This document shows, in pieces, positions 25,716 through 32,382 of a DNA stretch of 64,000 bases. Origin of the DNA: Gemmatimonadales bacterium (lineage in GTDB: Bacteria > Gemmatimonadota > Gemmatimonadetes > Gemmatimonadales > GWC2-71-9); the NCBI GenBank assembly GCA_036395695.1, contig DASWDA010000075.1:13441-77440 (forward strand), given 5' to 3'. Below the pieces are notes generated by a model. The model was not told the origin of the DNA and did no database searches. It saw nothing but the letters and a program-made list of their open reading frames with translations. Each line of letters starts with the position of its first letter. Position 1 is the stretch's first letter. Position numbers and translations under genes: made by a program.

Positions 25716-26387
25716 GTGTCTGCGACCGATGTGCTGCAGAAGGTTCCCCTGTTCAGCCAGCTCTCCGCCGCAGACCTGCAGCGGGTGGTGGAAGTCGCCC
25801 GCGACCGTACCTACCCGAAGAACTCCGTCATTCTGTTCGAGGATGATCCCGGCGATGCGCTCTTCGTCGTGGCGAAGGGTCAGGTCAAAGTCGTCCTCAT
25901 CGGCGAGGATGGCCGCGAGGTCATTCTCTCGGTGCTCGGCGAAGGGGAGTTCTTCGGCGAGATGGCGTTGATCGACGACGAGCCACGCTCCGCGCACGTC
26001 ATCGCGATGGAGGACTCGACGCTGTACGTGCTGCGGCGCGAAGACTTCCAGGGCATTCTCGAGCATGCGCCGGGCATCGGCCTCGCCCTGCTCCGCGAAC
26101 TGTCACGCCGCCTCCGCCGCGTCGATGAAAAAGTCGGCAGTCTCGTCCTGCTCGACGTGCACGGCCGTGTCGCCCAACTGCTGCTTGACCTCGCCGACGA
26201 AACGGACGGCCAGCGCATCACGCGCCGTCTCACCCATCACACGATCGCCCAGATGATCGGCTCGTCCCGCGAAACAGTGTCGCGGACCATGCGCGAGCTC
26301 GTTGATAAGGGAATGATTGACGTAAGTCGCAAGGACATTGTGATCAAAGACCGCGGCTCGCTCGAGCAGGCGGCGGGGCGGTCGTGA
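25716..26387 (+). CDS. Crp/Fnr family transcriptional regulator (cNMP-binding domain plus HTH)
   Basis: LFVVAKGQVKVVLIGEDGREVILSVLGEGEFFGEMALID is a cNMP-binding fold. TIAQMIGSSRETVSRTMRELVDKGMI is the HTH. Confidence 0.85.
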   Translation: MSATDVLQKVPLFSQLSAADLQRVVEVARDRTYPKNSVILFEDDPGDALFVVAKGQVKVVLIGEDGREVILSVLGEGEFFGEMALIDDEPRSAHVIAMEDSTLYVLRREDFQGILEHAPGIGLALLRELSRRLRRVDEKVGSLVLLDVHGRVAQLLLDLADETDGQRITRRLTHHTIAQMIGSSRETVSRTMRELVDKGMIDVSRKDIVIKDRGSLEQAAGRS

Positions 26388-26441
26388 CTCGCATCACGGC
26401 TCTACGTCACTAATTACCAGTAACTTAGCCCGAGTATAGGC

Positions 26442-27320
26442 GTGTCCACACGCACGACGTACACGGTGACCTTCTGGGGAACCCGGGGGAGTATTCCTAC
26501 TCCCGGGCTCGCGACGTCGCGGTACGGCGGCAACACGCCGTGCGTCGCCGTGGAAGGCACAGGAGGCCAACTCGTCGTGCTCGACGCCGGTACCGGAATC
26601 CGGGCGCTGGGGCTCGATCTGGTGGCGAAACAAAACGGCGCCGCCCGTGTCGAAATTCTGCTGTCGCACGCGCATTGGGACCACATTCAAGGGCTGCCGC
26701 ACTTCAAGCCGTTCTTCGCGCCGGGCAATTCGGTGCGGATCTGGGGATCGCGTCAGGGGACGACCTCCCTCGAGGCCATCCTGCGGCAGCAGATGGATCC
26801 GGCGGTGTTTCCGGTGCCGCTCGATGCGTTGTCGGCGAAGTTGACGGTGCAACAGGTGGACACGGACGACTTCTCGATCGGCGAGTTTCGGGTCCGGACG
26901 ATGAAGTTGCGGCACCCGGGAACGACGTTGGGATTCCGGCTGACCCCCGTGAAGGGCGGGCCCAGCCTCGCCTATGTGACGGACAACGAGCTCGGCGCAG
27001 GCGGCCAGTACGACGTGTCGAAGACCTGGCGCCGCGATTTCGTGACGTTCTTGAAGGGCGTCGAGCTCTTGATCCACGACGCGATGTACACGCCGAAGGA
27101 GCTGGAGCAGCACCGCGGCTGGGGCCACTCGACCTATGAAGAAGCGGTGACCCTGGCTCAGGATGCCGGCGCGACGAAGCTCGTGTTGTTTCACCACGAG
27201 CCCGAGCACGGCGACGAAGAGATGGATGGCTTGCTGGCGGCGGCGCGCAAGTACGCGAAGGCGCGCGGAGGTTCGCTCGAAGTGGTAGCCGCCCAGGAAG
27301 GCATGAAGGTGACCCTGTGA
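26442..27320 (+). CDS. MBL-fold metallo-hydrolase (Lactamase_B_2-like)
   Basis: TFWGTRGSIPTPG...YGGNTPCVAV...LLSHAHWDHIQGLPHF...LVLFHHEP. Confidence 0.7.
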   Translation: MSTRTTYTVTFWGTRGSIPTPGLATSRYGGNTPCVAVEGTGGQLVVLDAGTGIRALGLDLVAKQNGAARVEILLSHAHWDHIQGLPHFKPFFAPGNSVRIWGSRQGTTSLEAILRQQMDPAVFPVPLDALSAKLTVQQVDTDDFSIGEFRVRTMKLRHPGTTLGFRLTPVKGGPSLAYVTDNELGAGGQYDVSKTWRRDFVTFLKGVELLIHDAMYTPKELEQHRGWGHSTYEEAVTLAQDAGATKLVLFHHEPEHGDEEMDGLLAAARKYAKARGGSLEVVAAQEGMKVTL

Positions 27321-27334
27321 CCGAAGGAGTAGCT

Positions 27335-28030
27335 ATGCGCACGCGTGCAGTCATGACGGTCCTGAGCCTGGTTCCGGTGCTCCTCGCTGCGCAGCAGCGC
27401 AGCCAGGATACCCGCCCCGGTATCGCCGTCCTCCCCTTCAGCAACGGTGGCTCCTACGGTCAGGGCAAAGAAGATTTCGACGCCCTGGAGCGCGGCATCG
27501 CCGGGATGATGATCTCCGAGCTGGAACAGAATCCGGCGGCGCGTCTGGTCGAGCGCCAGGAAATCCAGCACCTGGTCGACGAGCAGAACCTCGGTGCGCA
27601 AGGCCGCGTGGATGCCCAGACCGCCGCCAAGGTCGGGAAGCTCGTCGGCGCCCGCTACGTCGTGCTCGGCACCTTCATTGATTTCTACGGTGACTTCCGC
27701 GTCGACGTCCGCCTCGTGAACACCGAAACGAGCGAAATCGTAAAGACCGAGTCGGAACGGATGCAGCGCGATCACATGTTCGACATCATCCGCAACATCG
27801 CGGCGCGGCTGATGAAGGACGCGAATCTCCCCGCGCTGCAGCGCCAGGCGTCGGACCAACGCATGAGCCGCCAGATTCCGACGGAGGCCCTGACGTACTA
27901 TTCGCGCGGCCTGCTGTACCAGGATCGCGGCGACAAGGCGAAGGCGGCCGACATGTTCACGCACGCCCTCGACATCTTCCCCCAATACGCTGAGGCCCAG
28001 GAAGGCCTGCAGCACGTGAAGTCGTCCTAA
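27335..28030 (+). CDS. CsgG/LpoB-like periplasmic protein with a C-terminal TPR
   Basis: The signal peptide is MRTRAVMTVLSLVPVLLAAQQ. GIAVLPFSNGGS...LVERQEIQHLVDEQNLG...AAKVGKLVGARYVVLGTF is CsgG-like. The TPR-like tail is ALTYYSRGLLYQDRGDKAKAADMF. AAGGAG lies 6 nt upstream of ATG 27335. Confidence 0.55.
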   Translation: MRTRAVMTVLSLVPVLLAAQQRSQDTRPGIAVLPFSNGGSYGQGKEDFDALERGIAGMMISELEQNPAARLVERQEIQHLVDEQNLGAQGRVDAQTAAKVGKLVGARYVVLGTFIDFYGDFRVDVRLVNTETSEIVKTESERMQRDHMFDIIRNIAARLMKDANLPALQRQASDQRMSRQIPTEALTYYSRGLLYQDRGDKAKAADMFTHALDIFPQYAEAQEGLQHVKSS

Positions 28031-28032
28031 CG

Positions 28033-28812
28033 GACCCCTTCACCCGCCTCGGCAAGTCGACTGCGCGCCGGCTCTCCCGATTAGGAGCGCTGGCGCGCTT
28101 CGGCTTTGGCTCCCTCCGCGCCGCCACCCGCCTCACCGCCGCCGGTCGCGCGGTCGCGGCGCGGCTCGCCATCACCCAAGTCCGCTTCACCGCGCTCAAC
28201 GCCGTCGGGCTGGTCACCCTGCTTTCCGGGATTCTGTCGTTTCTCGTGATCTCGCAGCTGACACGTGAGCTGAAGGGCATCGGCGCGACGGACCTGATCG
28301 GCACCGTCATCGTCGTCGCGATCGTGCGCGAGCTGGGACCCCTGCTCACCGCCCTCGTCGTCGTGGGCCGGTCCGGCACCGCCATCGCCGCCGAGCTCGC
28401 GACCAATCAGGTCATGGGCGAAGTCCGCGCGCTCGAGTTCATGGGCATCGATCCCAAGCAATACCTCGTGCTGCCGCGCTTCGTCGGATCGTTGGTGAGC
28501 GTCTTCGCGCTACTCATCGTGTTCGACTTCGTCGCGATCATGGCGGGCTTCGCCGCGGCCCGGTTCAACGGCCTGCCTGGCCCCCGCTATTTCCAGATCG
28601 TGCTCCAGTCGCTCACGAACCGCGATGTGTGGCTCACGATCTTCAAGGCCCTGGCCTTCGGCGCGATCGTCGGCGTGGTGCCGAGCTACTTCGGCCTGGC
28701 GGTGCGCCGGGCCTCGACGGAGATCCCGATCGCGGCAAGCCGGGCGGTCGTGGCGGCGCTCGTCGGCATCTTCCTGTGCTCGGCGTTGTTCGTGGCCCTG
28801 GGCGGATCATGA
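28033..28812 (+). CDS. mlaE: MlaE-family ABC transporter permease
   Basis: VVAIVRELGPLLTALVVVGRSGTAIAAELATNQVMGEVRALEFMGIDP is the MlaE signature region. Homology (RLGKSTARRLSRLGALARFGFGSL...) runs from about 28033, but the first ATG/GTG/TTG in this frame is GTG 28246, so the start codon is unresolved. Confidence 0.8.
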   Translation, partial: DPFTRLGKSTARRLSRLGALARFGFGSLRAATRLTAAGRAVAARLAITQVRFTALNAVGLVTLLSGILSFLVISQLTRELKGIGATDLIGTVIVVAIVRELGPLLTALVVVGRSGTAIAAELATNQVMGEVRALEFMGIDPKQYLVLPRFVGSLVSVFALLIVFDFVAIMAGFAAARFNGLPGPRYFQIVLQSLTNRDVWLTIFKALAFGAIVGVVPSYFGLAVRRASTEIPIAASRAVVAALVGIFLCSALFVALGGS

Positions 28813-29486
28813 CGGCTCCGCTCGTTTTCGATTCGATCCCGATCGCCCGGCAGGCATCCGCCCCCTTCTCGCTGGAGGTCGCAGAGCGGCGGACGGTCGC
28901 GGTGCTGGGAGATGAAGACTCCGGGGTCGGGCTGCTGGGAGGATTGGCGCTGGGGCTGGAGCGGCCGCCGGCGGGTCGCGCGCTGATCTTCGGCACGGTC
29001 ATCGCCACGCTTCCAGAGCCTGCGCGTTTAGCATTCCGCAGGCGCGTGGGCTACCTTCCCGCCGGCGAGGGGCTGCTGCAGAATCTCTCGCTGCGCGACA
29101 ACGTGGCGCTGCCGCTCAGGTTCGGCAGCGGCGCCGCCCCGCGGGAGATCGAAGGTCGCGTCACCGTCATGTTGACTGCGCTGCGGCTCACCGGCGCCGC
29201 GAACCTGCGCCCCGCGCAGGCCAACGAAGAGGAACGGCGCCGTGCGGCCCTGGCACGCGCCATCGCGTTCGATCCGACGTTGCTCATCCTGGAGCAGCCA
29301 TTCGATGGTCTGACGGCGCGCGTGGCGTCGGAGCTGCTGGAAATCGCGCGCGGCGGCGAGTCCGCCGACGGCGCACGGCGCACGATCTTCATCACCGGGC
29401 AGGAGATTCCGCCGATCATTTTGCGGCGCGTGGATCAGGTGTACCGGCTCACGCGCGCCGGCATGCTGGAGCCGGAAACCGTCTAG
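28809..29486 (+). CDS. MlaF-like ABC ATPase-fold protein with all catalytic motifs degenerate (predicted pseudo-ATPase)
   Basis: It is colinear with MlaF. Walker A GPSGIGKTT is replaced by GDEDSGVGL. The signature LSGG is replaced by ANEE. Walker B FDEP is replaced by LEQP. The H-loop SHD is replaced by TGQ. The RRAALARAIAFDPTLLIL scaffold is retained. An ATGA overlap joins it to mlaE. Confidence 0.7.
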   Translation: MTAPLVFDSIPIARQASAPFSLEVAERRTVAVLGDEDSGVGLLGGLALGLERPPAGRALIFGTVIATLPEPARLAFRRRVGYLPAGEGLLQNLSLRDNVALPLRFGSGAAPREIEGRVTVMLTALRLTGAANLRPAQANEEERRRAALARAIAFDPTLLILEQPFDGLTARVASELLEIARGGESADGARRTIFITGQEIPPIILRRVDQVYRLTRAGMLEPETV

Positions 29487-29509
29487 GGGACGAGGGAGAG
29501 GACTGGGGA

Positions 29510-30430
29510 GTGGAAACGCGGCAGGACTTCTACGTCGGCGTGCTGATCGTGGCGACGATCGCGCTCGTGCTGGGCGCGCTGATCGCGACGAGCGGCTGGG
29601 GCGAGCGGCGCTATGAGCTGTACGTGCGCGTGATCAGCGCCGACGGCATCTCGCGCGGGACGCCGGTCGTGATCGAAGGGCTGGACGTGGGACAAGTCAC
29701 CAGCGTCTCCCCGCGCGTGGACTCGGCCACGCGCCGGATCTCGTTCGTCGCCAAGTTGTCGGTTAAGGAGCGGTTCGAGAACGGCTCGAGCCTCCAGCTC
29801 CCGCTGGGCACGCGCGTCGAGCTCGTGCAGACAAGCCAGATCTCGCCGGCGGTCGCGATTCGTCTGGTGCTGCCCGACACGATCCGCGGACGCCGTATCT
29901 ACCTCCATGCCGGCGACACGCTCGACTCCCGGCGCAAAGGCAGTGCGCTCGAAGCCGTGGCGGAAGTCGCGGACGAGCTGTCGCAGCGCGTGCAGGAGAT
30001 GGTCCGCACAGCGACGCAGACGCTCGTCCGCGTGCAGTCCACGCTGCGGGAGGTGACGCCCGACGTCGAGCGGACGCTGACCGGCGTCGCGTCCACGATG
30101 GGCCGGCTCGACTCGATGGTGAACCGGTTCTCACAGCGCGGCCTAGCGGATTCGGTTTCGACCGCGGTCGCGAACACCAACCGCCTGCTGCTGCGCCTCG
30201 ACTCCCTCGCGCATGAAGCGCACTCGCTCGCCACGGAAAACCGCAGCGATCTCCGGCTCACCGTCGCGAACCTGACGGAAGCGTCGCGGCAGCTCAACAA
30301 TTTCGTGGACCAGATGTCGCGGCGACCGTTCCGCGCGCTCACGGGCGTGAAACCCTTGCCGCCACGCGATACGACCCGCGCCGCGGCCGATAGCGCCGCC
30401 GCGCGCGGCGCGGTCGGGGTCAAGCCGTGA
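29510..30430 (+). CDS. mlaD: MlaD/MCE-domain protein (single N-terminal TM helix)
   Basis: FYVGVLIVATIALVLGALIA is the TM helix. YELYVRVISADGISRGTPVVIEGLDVGQVTSVSP is the MCE core. A helical tail follows. Confidence 0.8.
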   Translation: METRQDFYVGVLIVATIALVLGALIATSGWGERRYELYVRVISADGISRGTPVVIEGLDVGQVTSVSPRVDSATRRISFVAKLSVKERFENGSSLQLPLGTRVELVQTSQISPAVAIRLVLPDTIRGRRIYLHAGDTLDSRRKGSALEAVAEVADELSQRVQEMVRTATQTLVRVQSTLREVTPDVERTLTGVASTMGRLDSMVNRFSQRGLADSVSTAVANTNRLLLRLDSLAHEAHSLATENRSDLRLTVANLTEASRQLNNFVDQMSRRPFRALTGVKPLPPRDTTRAAADSAAARGAVGVKP

Positions 30431-32382
30431 GATACCTGCTCCTGCACCCGCCGCGGTGGCAGCCCGACGCCGTCGCGCCGGCGCTGGAGACGTCGCAGGT
30501 CGAGGCGCGGCCTGTGCGCCAGGCGAAGGAGCTGATGGTCGCCGACGACCGGCCGACCGTCTTCCTGCTCGACGCCGAGAGTCGCTCGATCTTCCCGGTC
30601 GACGTCATGCGCTCGTTCGTGGACGCGGGCGGCGCGATCGTCGCGCTGGGACGCGACGGCGAGAACGACGTGCCGGACGGCATGCCGACGGAATTCCTGT
30701 CCGGCTTCCTGACCCAGCCGACCAGTCCGCGCGGCCTGCTCGTCGCCATCCGCGCGGGGTTCCGCGAAGCGGCCGCGCGCGCCGAAACGGCGCGGGCGCG
30801 CGGCGAGGCGGCGCAGCGCGCCCGGGAAATCGGCGAGTTGACGCGCATCGGCGTCGCGCTCGGAACCGAACGAGACATCAAGACGCTGCTCGATCTGATC
30901 CTGACGCAGTCGCGCCGCATCACGCAGTCGGATGCCGGCAGCCTCTACCTCGTCGAAACGAACGACAACGGCGACAAGCGGCTGCGCTTCCGGCTCGCGC
31001 AGACCCTCTCCAAACCGGAAGCCCCGTTCGTCGAGCACACGATTCCCGTCGATCGCGGCAGCCTCGCCGGCTACTGCGCCGTCACGGGCGACCCGCTCGT
31101 CATCGACGATGCCTACTTCCTGCCGCCCGACGTCGAGTACACCATCAACCGCTCGTTCGACGAGCGGTACGGCTACCGCACGAAATCGATGCTCGTGATT
31201 CCGATGAAGGACCACAAGGACGAGATCATCGGCGTGCTGCAGCTCATCAATCGCAAGCGCAACTTCGACGCCATTCTGACGACGTCCGCGGACGTCGACC
31301 GCCAGGTGGTGCCCTTCTCCAAACGCACGGTCGAGCTCGTCACCGCGCTGGCCGGCCAGGCCGCGGTCGCCATCGAGAACAGCCGGCTGTACGACGACAT
31401 CGAGAGGCTGTTCGAGGGATTCGTCCTGGCGGCGGTGCACGCGATCGAGCAGCGCGACCCGACGACCTACGGCCACAGCGGCCGCGTGGCGGGCATGACG
31501 GTGAGCCTGGCCGAGGTGGTCGACCGGGCCGGGGACGGGCCGTATCGGGGCGTGAGGTTCTCGCGCGAGCAGCTGAAGGAGATCCGCTATGCCGCGCTGC
31601 TGCACGACTTCGGCAAAGTCGGCGTCCGTGAGCAGGTGCTCATCAAGGCGAAAAAGCTGTACCCGTCCGACCTCGGCCTCGTGCGTCACCGTCATGCGTT
31701 CATCCGGCGGACGGCGGAGCGCGAATTCTGGCGCAAGCGCGCCGAGTTTCTCGAGGCCCACGGCAAGAACGGCTACGACCGCTTCATCAAGGAGCTCGAA
31801 GCCGCGCACGAGCAGGAGCTGAAGGAGCTGGACCGCTTCCTCGAAATTGTGCTCCAGGCAAACGAGCCGAGCATCCTGCCCGACGGCAGCTTCGACGATC
31901 TCAAGGCGTGGTCGAAGCGCAGCTACCTGGCATTTGACGGCGCGACCGAGCCATTTCTCTCAGACGACGAGATGCGGTACCTGACGATTCGCAAAGGCAG
32001 CCTGGACGACGCCGAGCGGCACGAGATCGAGAGTCACGTCACGCACACGTTCGAGTTTTTGCAGCGCATTCCGTGGACCCGCGAGCTCCAGCAGATCCCG
32101 CTCATCGCCTACGGGCATCATGAAAAGATGGACGGACGCGGGTATCCCCGGCGCATTACCGCCGACGCGATTCCGGTTCAGACGCGGATGATGACGATCA
32201 GTGACATCTACGACGCGTTGACGGCCCAGGACCGGCCGTACAAGCGGGCGGTGTCCGTCGATCGCGCGCTCGACATCCTCACGACTGAAGTAAAAGAGGG
32301 TCAGCTCGACCCGGACCTGTTCAAGCTGTTCATCGACGGCAAGCTATTCCAGCGTCCGGCGGAGGACGCCACCGCGCCTTAG
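30427..32382 (+). CDS. Receiver-like, GAF and HD-GYP domain protein (putative c-di-GMP phosphodiesterase)
   Basis: The GAF domain is SDAGSLYLVETNDNGDKRLRF...MLVIPMKDHKDEIIGVLQLINRK. The HD-GYP domain is GHSGRVAGM...AALLHDFGKVGV...AYGHHEKMDGRGYP...ISDIYDALTAQDRPYK. A GTGA overlap joins it to mlaD. Confidence 0.8.
   Translation: MRYLLLHPPRWQPDAVAPALETSQVEARPVRQAKELMVADDRPTVFLLDAESRSIFPVDVMRSFVDAGGAIVALGRDGENDVPDGMPTEFLSGFLTQPTSPRGLLVAIRAGFREAAARAETARARGEAAQRAREIGELTRIGVALGTERDIKTLLDLILTQSRRITQSDAGSLYLVETNDNGDKRLRFRLAQTLSKPEAPFVEHTIPVDRGSLAGYCAVTGDPLVIDDAYFLPPDVEYTINRSFDERYGYRTKSMLVIPMKDHKDEIIGVLQLINRKRNFDAILTTSADVDRQVVPFSKRTVELVTALAGQAAVAIENSRLYDDIERLFEGFVLAAVHAIEQRDPTTYGHSGRVAGMTVSLAEVVDRAGDGPYRGVRFSREQLKEIRYAALLHDFGKVGVREQVLIKAKKLYPSDLGLVRHRHAFIRRTAEREFWRKRAEFLEAHGKNGYDRFIKELEAAHEQELKELDRFLEIVLQANEPSILPDGSFDDLKAWSKRSYLAFDGATEPFLSDDEMRYLTIRKGSLDDAERHEIESHVTHTFEFLQRIPWTRELQQIPLIAYGHHEKMDGRGYPRRITADAIPVQTRMMTISDIYDALTAQDRPYKRAVSVDRALDILTTEVKEGQLDPDLFKLFIDGKLFQRPAEDATAP

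Follow-up and report, generated by a model that had tools for sequence, protein, structure and literature searches.

In the MlaFEDB transporters of Escherichia coli and Acinetobacter baumannii (6XBD, 7D06), an MlaE-family permease and an MCE subunit are combined with MlaF, which has the nucleotide-binding domain (NBD) fold of ABC transporters. An operon of this Mla/MCE type, that of an envelope lipid transporter, lies in a 64,000-nucleotide stretch of DNA (hereafter the window; assembly GCA_036395695.1, contig DASWDA010000075.1, positions 13,441 to 77,440, forward strand) from a soil bacterium of the order Gemmatimonadales. The gene in the MlaF position encodes a protein of 225 aa, here called the pseudo-ATPase, which has the fold of an ABC NBD and has lost its catalytic motifs. 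From its sequence, it is predicted to be unable to bind or hydrolyse ATP, and it is probable that the transporter either works with no ATP hydrolysis by its own subunit or now serves in a structural or signalling capacity. The system descends from an Mla/MCE-type ABC transporter, and its closest described relatives are minimal MlaEFD systems with a long MlaD (PMC10665443) and the YrbE/Mce systems.

The window operon resembles MlaFEDB in its MlaE-family permease, its MCE subunit and its NBD fold (template modelling (TM) scores 0.83-0.86), and in both systems the three genes are adjacent and partly overlap. It differs from MlaFEDB in that its NBD lacks all five motifs and the C-terminal extension, and its MlaD is long (306 aa, compared with 183 aa). 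Another difference is that no MlaB (STAS), MlaC or MlaA domain was found among the genes called within about 10 kb on either side of the operon. Veillonella parvula and other non-proteobacterial diderms share with the window the overlapping E-F-D core, a long MlaD and the lack of MlaA, MlaB and MlaC (PMC10665443), and long MlaD has been proposed as an envelope bridge (Grasekamp et al., 2023, PMC10665443). Unlike the pseudo-ATPase, however, MlaF of V. parvula closely resembles canonical MlaF (PMC10665443).

The mycobacterial Mce1 and Mce4 systems consist of Mce proteins, YrbE permeases and the ATPase MceG (8FED). The best PDB sequence matches of the window MlaE are YrbE1A and MlaE, YrbE1A being the nearest, and the window MCE protein matches TIGR00996 and has a long C-terminal region like its mycobacterial counterparts. 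MceG also has a role in stabilising the transporter. In contrast to the pseudo-ATPase, MceG is an active enzyme that depends on its Walker B residues (PMC9947336). Further differences of the mycobacterial systems are a heterohexameric MCE ring and an ATPase gene located apart from the operons.

Loss of catalytic motifs in a maintained gene

The pseudo-ATPase matches Pfam ABC_tran weakly (38.4 bits, E 2.3e-9), yet above the gathering score of 25. The NCBIfam MlaF model (NF008809) gave 64.6 bits against a cut-off of 441, which places the protein outside the MlaF equivalog. The LolD, FtsE and CysA models of NCBIfam score it about as the MlaF model does, and all equivalog cut-offs are far out of reach. 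Its gene lies between mlaE (5') and the MCE gene (3', 24 nt downstream), and its ATG overlaps the TGA of mlaE by 4 nt (GATCATGACG). Pfam recognises the upstream neighbour as an MlaE/YrbE-family permease (PF02405) and the downstream neighbour as an MCE-domain subunit (PF02470, 32.4 bits with a cut-off of 25.1). A longer open reading frame (ORF) of 285 aa starting at GTG 28629 was rejected because the orthologues begin at the ATG and the extension falls within mlaE.

Motif positions were fixed by phmmer alignment to solved LolD and MlaF chains, and a second alignment was made with MAFFT and 75 ABC NBD representatives. All five motifs (Walker A, Q-loop, signature, Walker B and H-loop) carry substitutions (Table 1). 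The former P-loop has Val where Lys would be and Gly in place of Ser/Thr, together with three inserted acidic residues. The D-loop is substituted as well, and reads P-F-D-G-L-T after the Walker B site. The composition of the protein, which does not depend on any alignment, includes no Lys and no His, so no shift of the alignment can restore the P-loop Lys or the switch His. The pattern GxxxxGK[ST] is found in none of the 167 family members. A sequence-only reading of this stretch had claimed the loss of these five motifs in an mlaE-F-mlaD context with an ATGA overlap. The neighbouring genes and the ORF overlap agree with the claimed context, and phmmer and MAFFT both bear out the motif loss at the claimed positions. 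The alternative that a proper alignment would shift the motifs and reveal an intact P-loop fails, given the two alignments and the absence of Lys and His. None of the sequence hallmarks of a catalytic ABC ATPase is present in the pseudo-ATPase.

Two other interpretations of the remodelled P-loop were considered and rejected. A PilZ-like [DN]xSxxG pattern, sought by eye, fits poorly and lacks conservation. G-D-E-D-S-G could be read as a GDS(L)/serine-hydrolase motif, but the protein has no His for the catalytic triad.

Table 1. Positions of the seven-gene block and the former NBD motifs in the window, and degenerate-NBD operons of other lineages with neighbours related to cyclic di-GMP (cNMP, cyclic nucleotide monophosphate; MBL, metallo-beta-lactamase; AF2, AlphaFold2; omega, ratio dN/dS).
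Feature	Sequence	Position	Strand	Basis or neighbour
Crp/Fnr-family regulator (cNMP-binding domain + HTH_Crp_2), first gene of block	window	25716..26387	+	
MBL-fold hydrolase (Lactamase_B_2, Apyc1-like matches)	window	26442..27320	+	
Secreted CsgG-like + TPR protein	window	27317..28030	+	Pfam CsgG E 3.5e-18, TPR_1
MlaE-type permease, about 264 aa	window	28018..28812	+	PF02405 E 1e-49
Pseudo-ATPase (MlaF position), 225-aa ABC NBD fold	window	28809..29486	+	ABC_tran, NCBIfam MlaF, AF2, Foldseek, omega
Former Walker A / P-loop, G34-D-E-D-S-G-V-G-L42	window	28908..28934	+	compared with LolD GSSGSGKST
Former Q-loop, G-Y-L-P-A-G, residues 81-86	window	29049..29066	+	Gln replaced by Ala85
Former signature, A-N-E-E-E, residues 138-142, for LSGG[QE]	window	29220..29234	+	alignment
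Former Walker B, L-L-I-L-E-Q, residues 158-163; E162-Q163 for D-E	window	29280..29297	+	alignment
Former H-loop/switch, T-G-Q, residues 196-198, for T-H-D	window	29394..29402	+	MAFFT alignment, orthologues
Long MlaD-type MCE protein, 306 aa	window	29510..30430	+	PF02470 E 1e-7; TIGR00996 Mtu_fam_mce
GAF-HD-GYP protein, predicted c-di-GMP phosphodiesterase	window	30427..32382	+	Pfam GAF, HD_5
Degenerate NBD in mlaE-NBD-mlaD	L089	2852-7566		neighbour GAF-GAF-GGDEF
Degenerate NBD in mlaE-NBD-mlaD	L090	2-3310		neighbour PilZ
Degenerate NBD in mlaE-NBD-mlaD	P0274 locus			neighbour GGDEF-EAL

Searches of the protein database gave at least 120 homologues with at least 73% identity, from Gemmatimonadales soil metagenome-assembled genomes (MAGs) and metagenomes. 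At the DNA level, 80 metagenome loci and 80 GTDB species-representative loci were compared, the latter being 80 of 138 matching genome stretches. These 80 listed GTDB matches are all Gemmatimonadales or Gemmatimonadaceae MAGs, with no cultured isolate among them. About 165 orthologues (56-100% identity) all carry the same substitutions, with the consensus G-D-E-x-S-G-[VIL]-[GD], P-A-G, [AVT][NTS][EDA]-E-[ED], L-E-[QED]-P and T-G-Q. In the database homologues, too, these replacement residues hardly vary. The family is narrow, and only about a dozen members of a 50%-identity representative library fall under E 1e-30. The full-length close representatives P0121 (58% identity) and P0123 (52%) are degenerate too, and beyond representatives of this type there is a steep fall to generic NBDs at about 35% identity.

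The ratio dN/dS (omega) was calculated by the Nei-Gojobori method (NG86) for each locus against the window. For the pseudo-ATPase gene, omega is 0.04-0.10 in close pairs, with a median of 0.16. Median values in the same loci are 0.18 for mlaE and 0.27 for mlaD; the pseudo-ATPase gene is thus like mlaE and below mlaD. GC content at codon positions 1, 2 and 3 is 0.74, 0.52 and 0.84, and neighbouring genes are alike. The strong third-position bias from which the sequence-only reading had argued for a maintained gene is therefore real, and with omega of about 0.04-0.17, an intact ORF and conserved substitutions, the gene is indeed maintained. The competing possibility, that relatives carry intact motifs and this copy is under relaxed selection, does not hold, with about 165 orthologues degenerate alike and under purifying selection.

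A decaying pseudogene, or an artefact of annotation or assembly, would account for the weak profile scores and for an adjoining mlaE gene that has no canonical start codon. Against this stand an ORF that is unbroken in more than 165 independent assemblies, the omega and third-position values given above, and the invariance of the replaced motif residues. The N-terminal part of mlaE is also under purifying selection (omega 0.11). Omega and motif conservation in the orthologues already refute a pseudogene or artefact, to which we give practically no weight.

Fold, putative docking surface and a proposed non-catalytic role

Structure prediction with AlphaFold2 (AF2) and a diverse NBD alignment gave a predicted local distance difference test (pLDDT) score of 92.8 and a predicted TM score of 0.90, with the usual NBD order of strands and helices. 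In Foldseek searches of this model against the PDB, LolD, the MacB NBD, MlaF, FtsE and MetN were on top, with TM scores of 0.83-0.87. The protein therefore has the RecA-like and helical-subdomain fold of an NBD by AF2, Foldseek and the ABC_tran score, and the helical scaffold is retained as had been proposed from sequence.

In ABC NBDs, the Q-loop and the first helices of the helical subdomain form the groove that receives the coupling helix of the permease. The lowest-entropy stretch of the pseudo-ATPase is residues 73-107 (LAFRRRVGYLPAGxGLLQNLSLRDNVALPLRFG), which comprises a strand, the Q-loop and these first helices. MlaE in turn retains an EAA-like coupling helix, EVRALEFMGIDP, corresponding to EIDALEVLGIDP in the alignment with YrbE1A. 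Because the groove is conserved and the coupling helix is kept, we infer that the pseudo-ATPase is still docked on MlaE.

The residues that replaced the old ATP site are nearly invariant (D35, E36, D37, N139, E140, E141, E142 and E162), and most of them are acidic. Such conservation implies a new constraint at what would formerly have been the NBD-NBD and ATP interface. This constraint could, as speculation, reflect a surface that binds a cation or a partner, or a device that locks the dimer in one state.

Another possible explanation of the protein is residual, non-canonical binding or hydrolysis of nucleotide through other residues, such as conserved Arg or Glu. The strand-loop-helix geometry of the P-loop is confidently predicted (AF2 pLDDT 93-94 for residues 31-50), S38 and G39 are kept, and several Arg are invariant, all of which would be compatible with nucleotide use. 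However, the protein has no Lys at all, and it has kept neither the Q-loop Gln nor the catalytic Glu nor the switch His. The A-loop aromatic region is the least conserved part of the pseudo-ATPase (mean entropy 1.78). Phosphates would also be repelled by acidic side chains, of which the P-loop and the former signature have three each. We consider residual nucleotide use very improbable.

The composite ATP site of ABC transporters is made up of Walker A, Walker B and H-loop of one NBD together with the signature of its partner. In all degenerate-site heterodimers known to us, Walker A and one intact signature are retained, and the pseudo-ATPase is unlike all of them. TM287/288, TmrAB, CFTR and PatAB are comparable to the window system in that catalytic NBD residues have been lost while the fold and a regulatory role are kept. 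They differ in having a single degenerate site, which still binds ATP, and another site that hydrolyses it. In the window, the NBD gene has lost both contributions, which would leave a homodimer with no functional site.

These comparisons bear on a heteromeric motor, in which the pseudo-ATPase pairs with, or is swapped for, a canonical MlaF/MceG-like ATPase encoded elsewhere. Orphan ATPases shared among MCE systems do exist, MceG of mycobacteria being an example (PMC9947336). Gemmatimonadetes genomes also have several MlaE/MlaD loci, some with a syntenic MlaF and some without (PMC10665443, supplement), so sharing of an ATPase within the phylum is conceivable. On the other hand, the Walker A/B/H half and the signature/D-loop half are both lost in the pseudo-ATPase, so no consensus site would form even with a canonical partner. 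There is one mlaE gene, which implies two equivalent docking sites, and the overlap of mlaE with the pseudo-ATPase gene suggests 1:1 co-production. A regular-expression search of the 64-kb window and of 171 related loci found no canonical NBD (Walker A plus LSGG). A heteromeric motor seems decidedly unlikely to us on this evidence.

We favour, at somewhat better than even probability, the view that the pseudo-ATPase caps an MlaE-MCE conduit without catalysis, in a structural or regulatory role; this view is in line with all the observations. Under this proposal, an MlaF-derived ABC NBD would have kept its fold and the groove for the MlaE coupling helix and lost ATP binding and hydrolysis. Two copies would sit beneath an MlaE dimer bearing a hexamer of long MlaD, in a complex of the E2F*2D6 type (F* being the pseudo-ATPase), and the MCE conduit would operate without hydrolysis by its own NBD. 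Candidate roles include a passive or gated lipid conduit and a tether linking the two membranes. The conserved acidic residues at the P-loop and signature sites would form a new interface, and the tightly coupled HD-GYP enzyme encoded after mlaD could place the complex under cyclic-nucleotide control. The fold, the motif loss, the purifying selection, the synteny and the conserved groove are observed features of this locus; an ATP-independent mode of action and the suggested physiological roles would follow from them by inference.

There are partial precedents for such a conduit. PqiAB and LetAB are MCE tunnels that work independently of ATP. PqiAB(C) and LetAB (YebST) are similar to the window system as trans-envelope MCE conduits lacking an ABC ATPase, but PqiA and LetA are unrelated to MlaE, whereas the window system has ABC architecture with a dead motor. 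Bridge systems with a long MlaD and no MlaA or MlaC also exist (PMC10665443).

Several points weigh against a non-catalytic cap. We know of no MlaE-type transporter that functions without ATP. In Mycobacterium tuberculosis, MceG with a mutated Walker B fails both to transport and to stabilise Mce1/Mce4 (PMC9947336). As in mycobacteria, a canonical MlaF/MceG-like ATPase could be encoded elsewhere in the genome; the NBD scan covered the window and the 171 loci. Docking of the pseudo-ATPase on MlaE and the E2F*2D6 stoichiometry are suggested by conservation. The good AF2 model needed canonical NBDs in its alignment, and with an alignment of the family only (44 sequences, at least 73% identity) pLDDT was 48.7.

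Gene block and a possible link to cyclic di-GMP

The operon is part of a co-directional block of seven genes (25716-32382), which encode in order a Crp-like regulator, an MBL-fold protein, a CsgG-like/TPR protein, MlaE, the pseudo-ATPase, MlaD and a GAF-HD-GYP protein, with opposite-strand genes on both flanks. Gene order and spacing are constant in all loci with enough flanking sequence and in all 80 species genomes. Three proteins encoded in the block have links to cyclic-nucleotide signalling. MlaD has a transmembrane segment, one MCE domain, which weakly matches the MCE domains of LetB/YebT, and about 150 C-terminal residues with weak coiled-coil-type matches, which are taken to be helical. 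The CsgG-like/TPR protein has a signal-peptide-like N-terminus and no lipobox Cys, unlike the CsgG or LpoB lipoproteins.

The start of mlaE is unusual. Its first 76 codons (28018-28245), the conserved coding region with the low omega given above, contain no ATG, GTG or TTG. The ORF from a canonical start is 28246-28812, and gene callers truncate MlaE to 188 aa. The GTG start of distant mlaE relatives is CTA or GTA in the clade of the window, and the start site overlaps the TAA or TAG stop of the CsgG-like gene (28028-28030 in the window). The sequence here points to non-canonical initiation, with near-cognate ACG, ATC and CTG codons nearby, or to coupling by termination and reinitiation.

The stop codon of mlaD overlaps the start of the HD-GYP gene by 4 nt (30427-30430, GTGA) in 125 of about 139 loci, and the motif HHExxDGxGYP is intact in all 117 full-length GAF-HD-GYP orthologues. 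The N-terminal region of about 145 aa of this protein (30427-30860) has no Pfam match; a VFLLD... pattern seen by eye suggests that it may be a degenerate receiver-like domain.

These features are relevant to the possibility that MlaE, the pseudo-ATPase and MlaD form a signalling module, acting primarily as a trans-envelope sensor or regulated gate wired to cyclic dimeric guanosine monophosphate (cyclic di-GMP, c-di-GMP). The pseudo-ATPase might bind a ligand or second messenger at its acidic site, or act as a docking adaptor for the GAF-HD-GYP phosphodiesterase, and the state of the envelope or its lipids and the turnover of c-di-GMP would in that case regulate each other. The conserved mlaD/HD-GYP overlap and the intact HD-GYP motif are consistent with this, as is the presence in the block of the Crp-like cNMP-binding regulator and the MBL-fold Apyc1-like hydrolase. 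The conserved replacement residues imply a new function at the old ATP site, and a c-di-GMP gene adjoins the mlaE-F*-mlaD operon in three other lineages with degenerate NBDs (Table 1). However, the entire region is syntenic across the order, which makes adjacency weak evidence, and the pseudo-ATPase has no recognisable c-di-GMP-binding motif. Literature searches found no paper tying MCE systems to c-di-GMP. This reading overlaps with that of a structural or regulatory cap, and we regard it as possible but unlikely.

The comparison with other lineages has its own limits. Eight degenerate lineages were inspected for adjacent c-di-GMP genes, and four were positive including the window family, which is suggestive but not a statistical test. 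No c-di-GMP neighbour was present at L173, L174, the P0252 locus or L175. The sample is small and post hoc, and c-di-GMP genes are common in environmental genomes. A TPR protein after mlaD also occurs in two of the other degenerate-NBD operons (L090 and the P0252 locus).

The sequence-only reading had offered three mechanistic options: an energy-independent lipid shuttle, a heterodimer with an ATPase encoded elsewhere, and a regulatory use of the NBD fold. The heterodimer is weakened by the loss of both site halves, the single mlaE and the lack of a canonical NBD in the window and the 171 loci. Regulatory use gains support from the conserved 4-nt overlap of mlaD and the GAF-HD-GYP gene.

A degenerate signature is present in many of the nearest single-domain NBD representatives; in about a dozen of these, the Lys or the Ser/Thr of Walker A is missing too. 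All degenerate representatives that were looked up are in mlaE-NBD-mlaD operons, and the phenomenon may be broader than one order. In crude neighbour-joining trees, MlaF-like NBDs without Walker A fall together with the Gemmatimonadales family, and masking of the motif columns does not undo this; the grouping hints at a single ancient origin of dead NBDs. These trees probably suffer from long-branch attraction, and their distances approach saturation (0.75-0.78). It is conceivable, but we think rather doubtful, that dead-NBD MlaE-MCE operons are a widespread unrecognised class in which the motor has turned into a hydrolysis-independent adaptor or sensor coupled to c-di-GMP. Such a change would yield a transporter-derived trans-envelope signalling device or a messenger-gated lipid conduit. 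The link would be the translationally coupled GAF-HD-GYP protein in Gemmatimonadales, and adjacent GGDEF, GGDEF-EAL or PilZ proteins elsewhere.

Implications for Mla/MCE systems

In full-text literature searches, no account of a fully dead MlaF came up. Databases label the proteins of this family "ATP-binding" or "MlaF ATPase subunit", and homology-based censuses of MlaF would count dead NBDs as functional motors. In the survey of Grasekamp et al., MlaF was assigned by homology and synteny only, motif state was not analysed, and "uncertainty of MlaF annotations" was mentioned (PMC10665443). Comparison of the NCBI accessions of family members with the table of that survey gave no genome in common. 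The window protein matches the PRK11831 model with E 8.5e-18, so that table could include dead NBDs among its "MlaF" entries. Gemmatimonas aurantiaca and G. phototrophica each have two MlaE and two MlaD with no syntenic MlaF, and two other Gemmatimonadetes genomes have an extra E-x-D locus in which the middle gene was unrecognised as MlaF (PMC10665443, supplement). It may be common in this phylum for MCE systems to lack a recognisable motor.

The direction of Mla/MCE transport (retrograde or anterograde) and what ATP hydrolysis pays for are still debated. If the dead-NBD class described above is real, it would consist of c-di-GMP-coupled, transporter-derived envelope systems that were previously unrecognised. 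An order-wide MlaE-MCE system whose sole dedicated NBD is predicted to be dead for ATP binding amounts to a natural experiment. Lipid movement by the complex would mean that MlaE-MCE conduits can run passively or on another energy source, whereas its absence would mean that an ABC scaffold has been recruited to structural or signalling duty.

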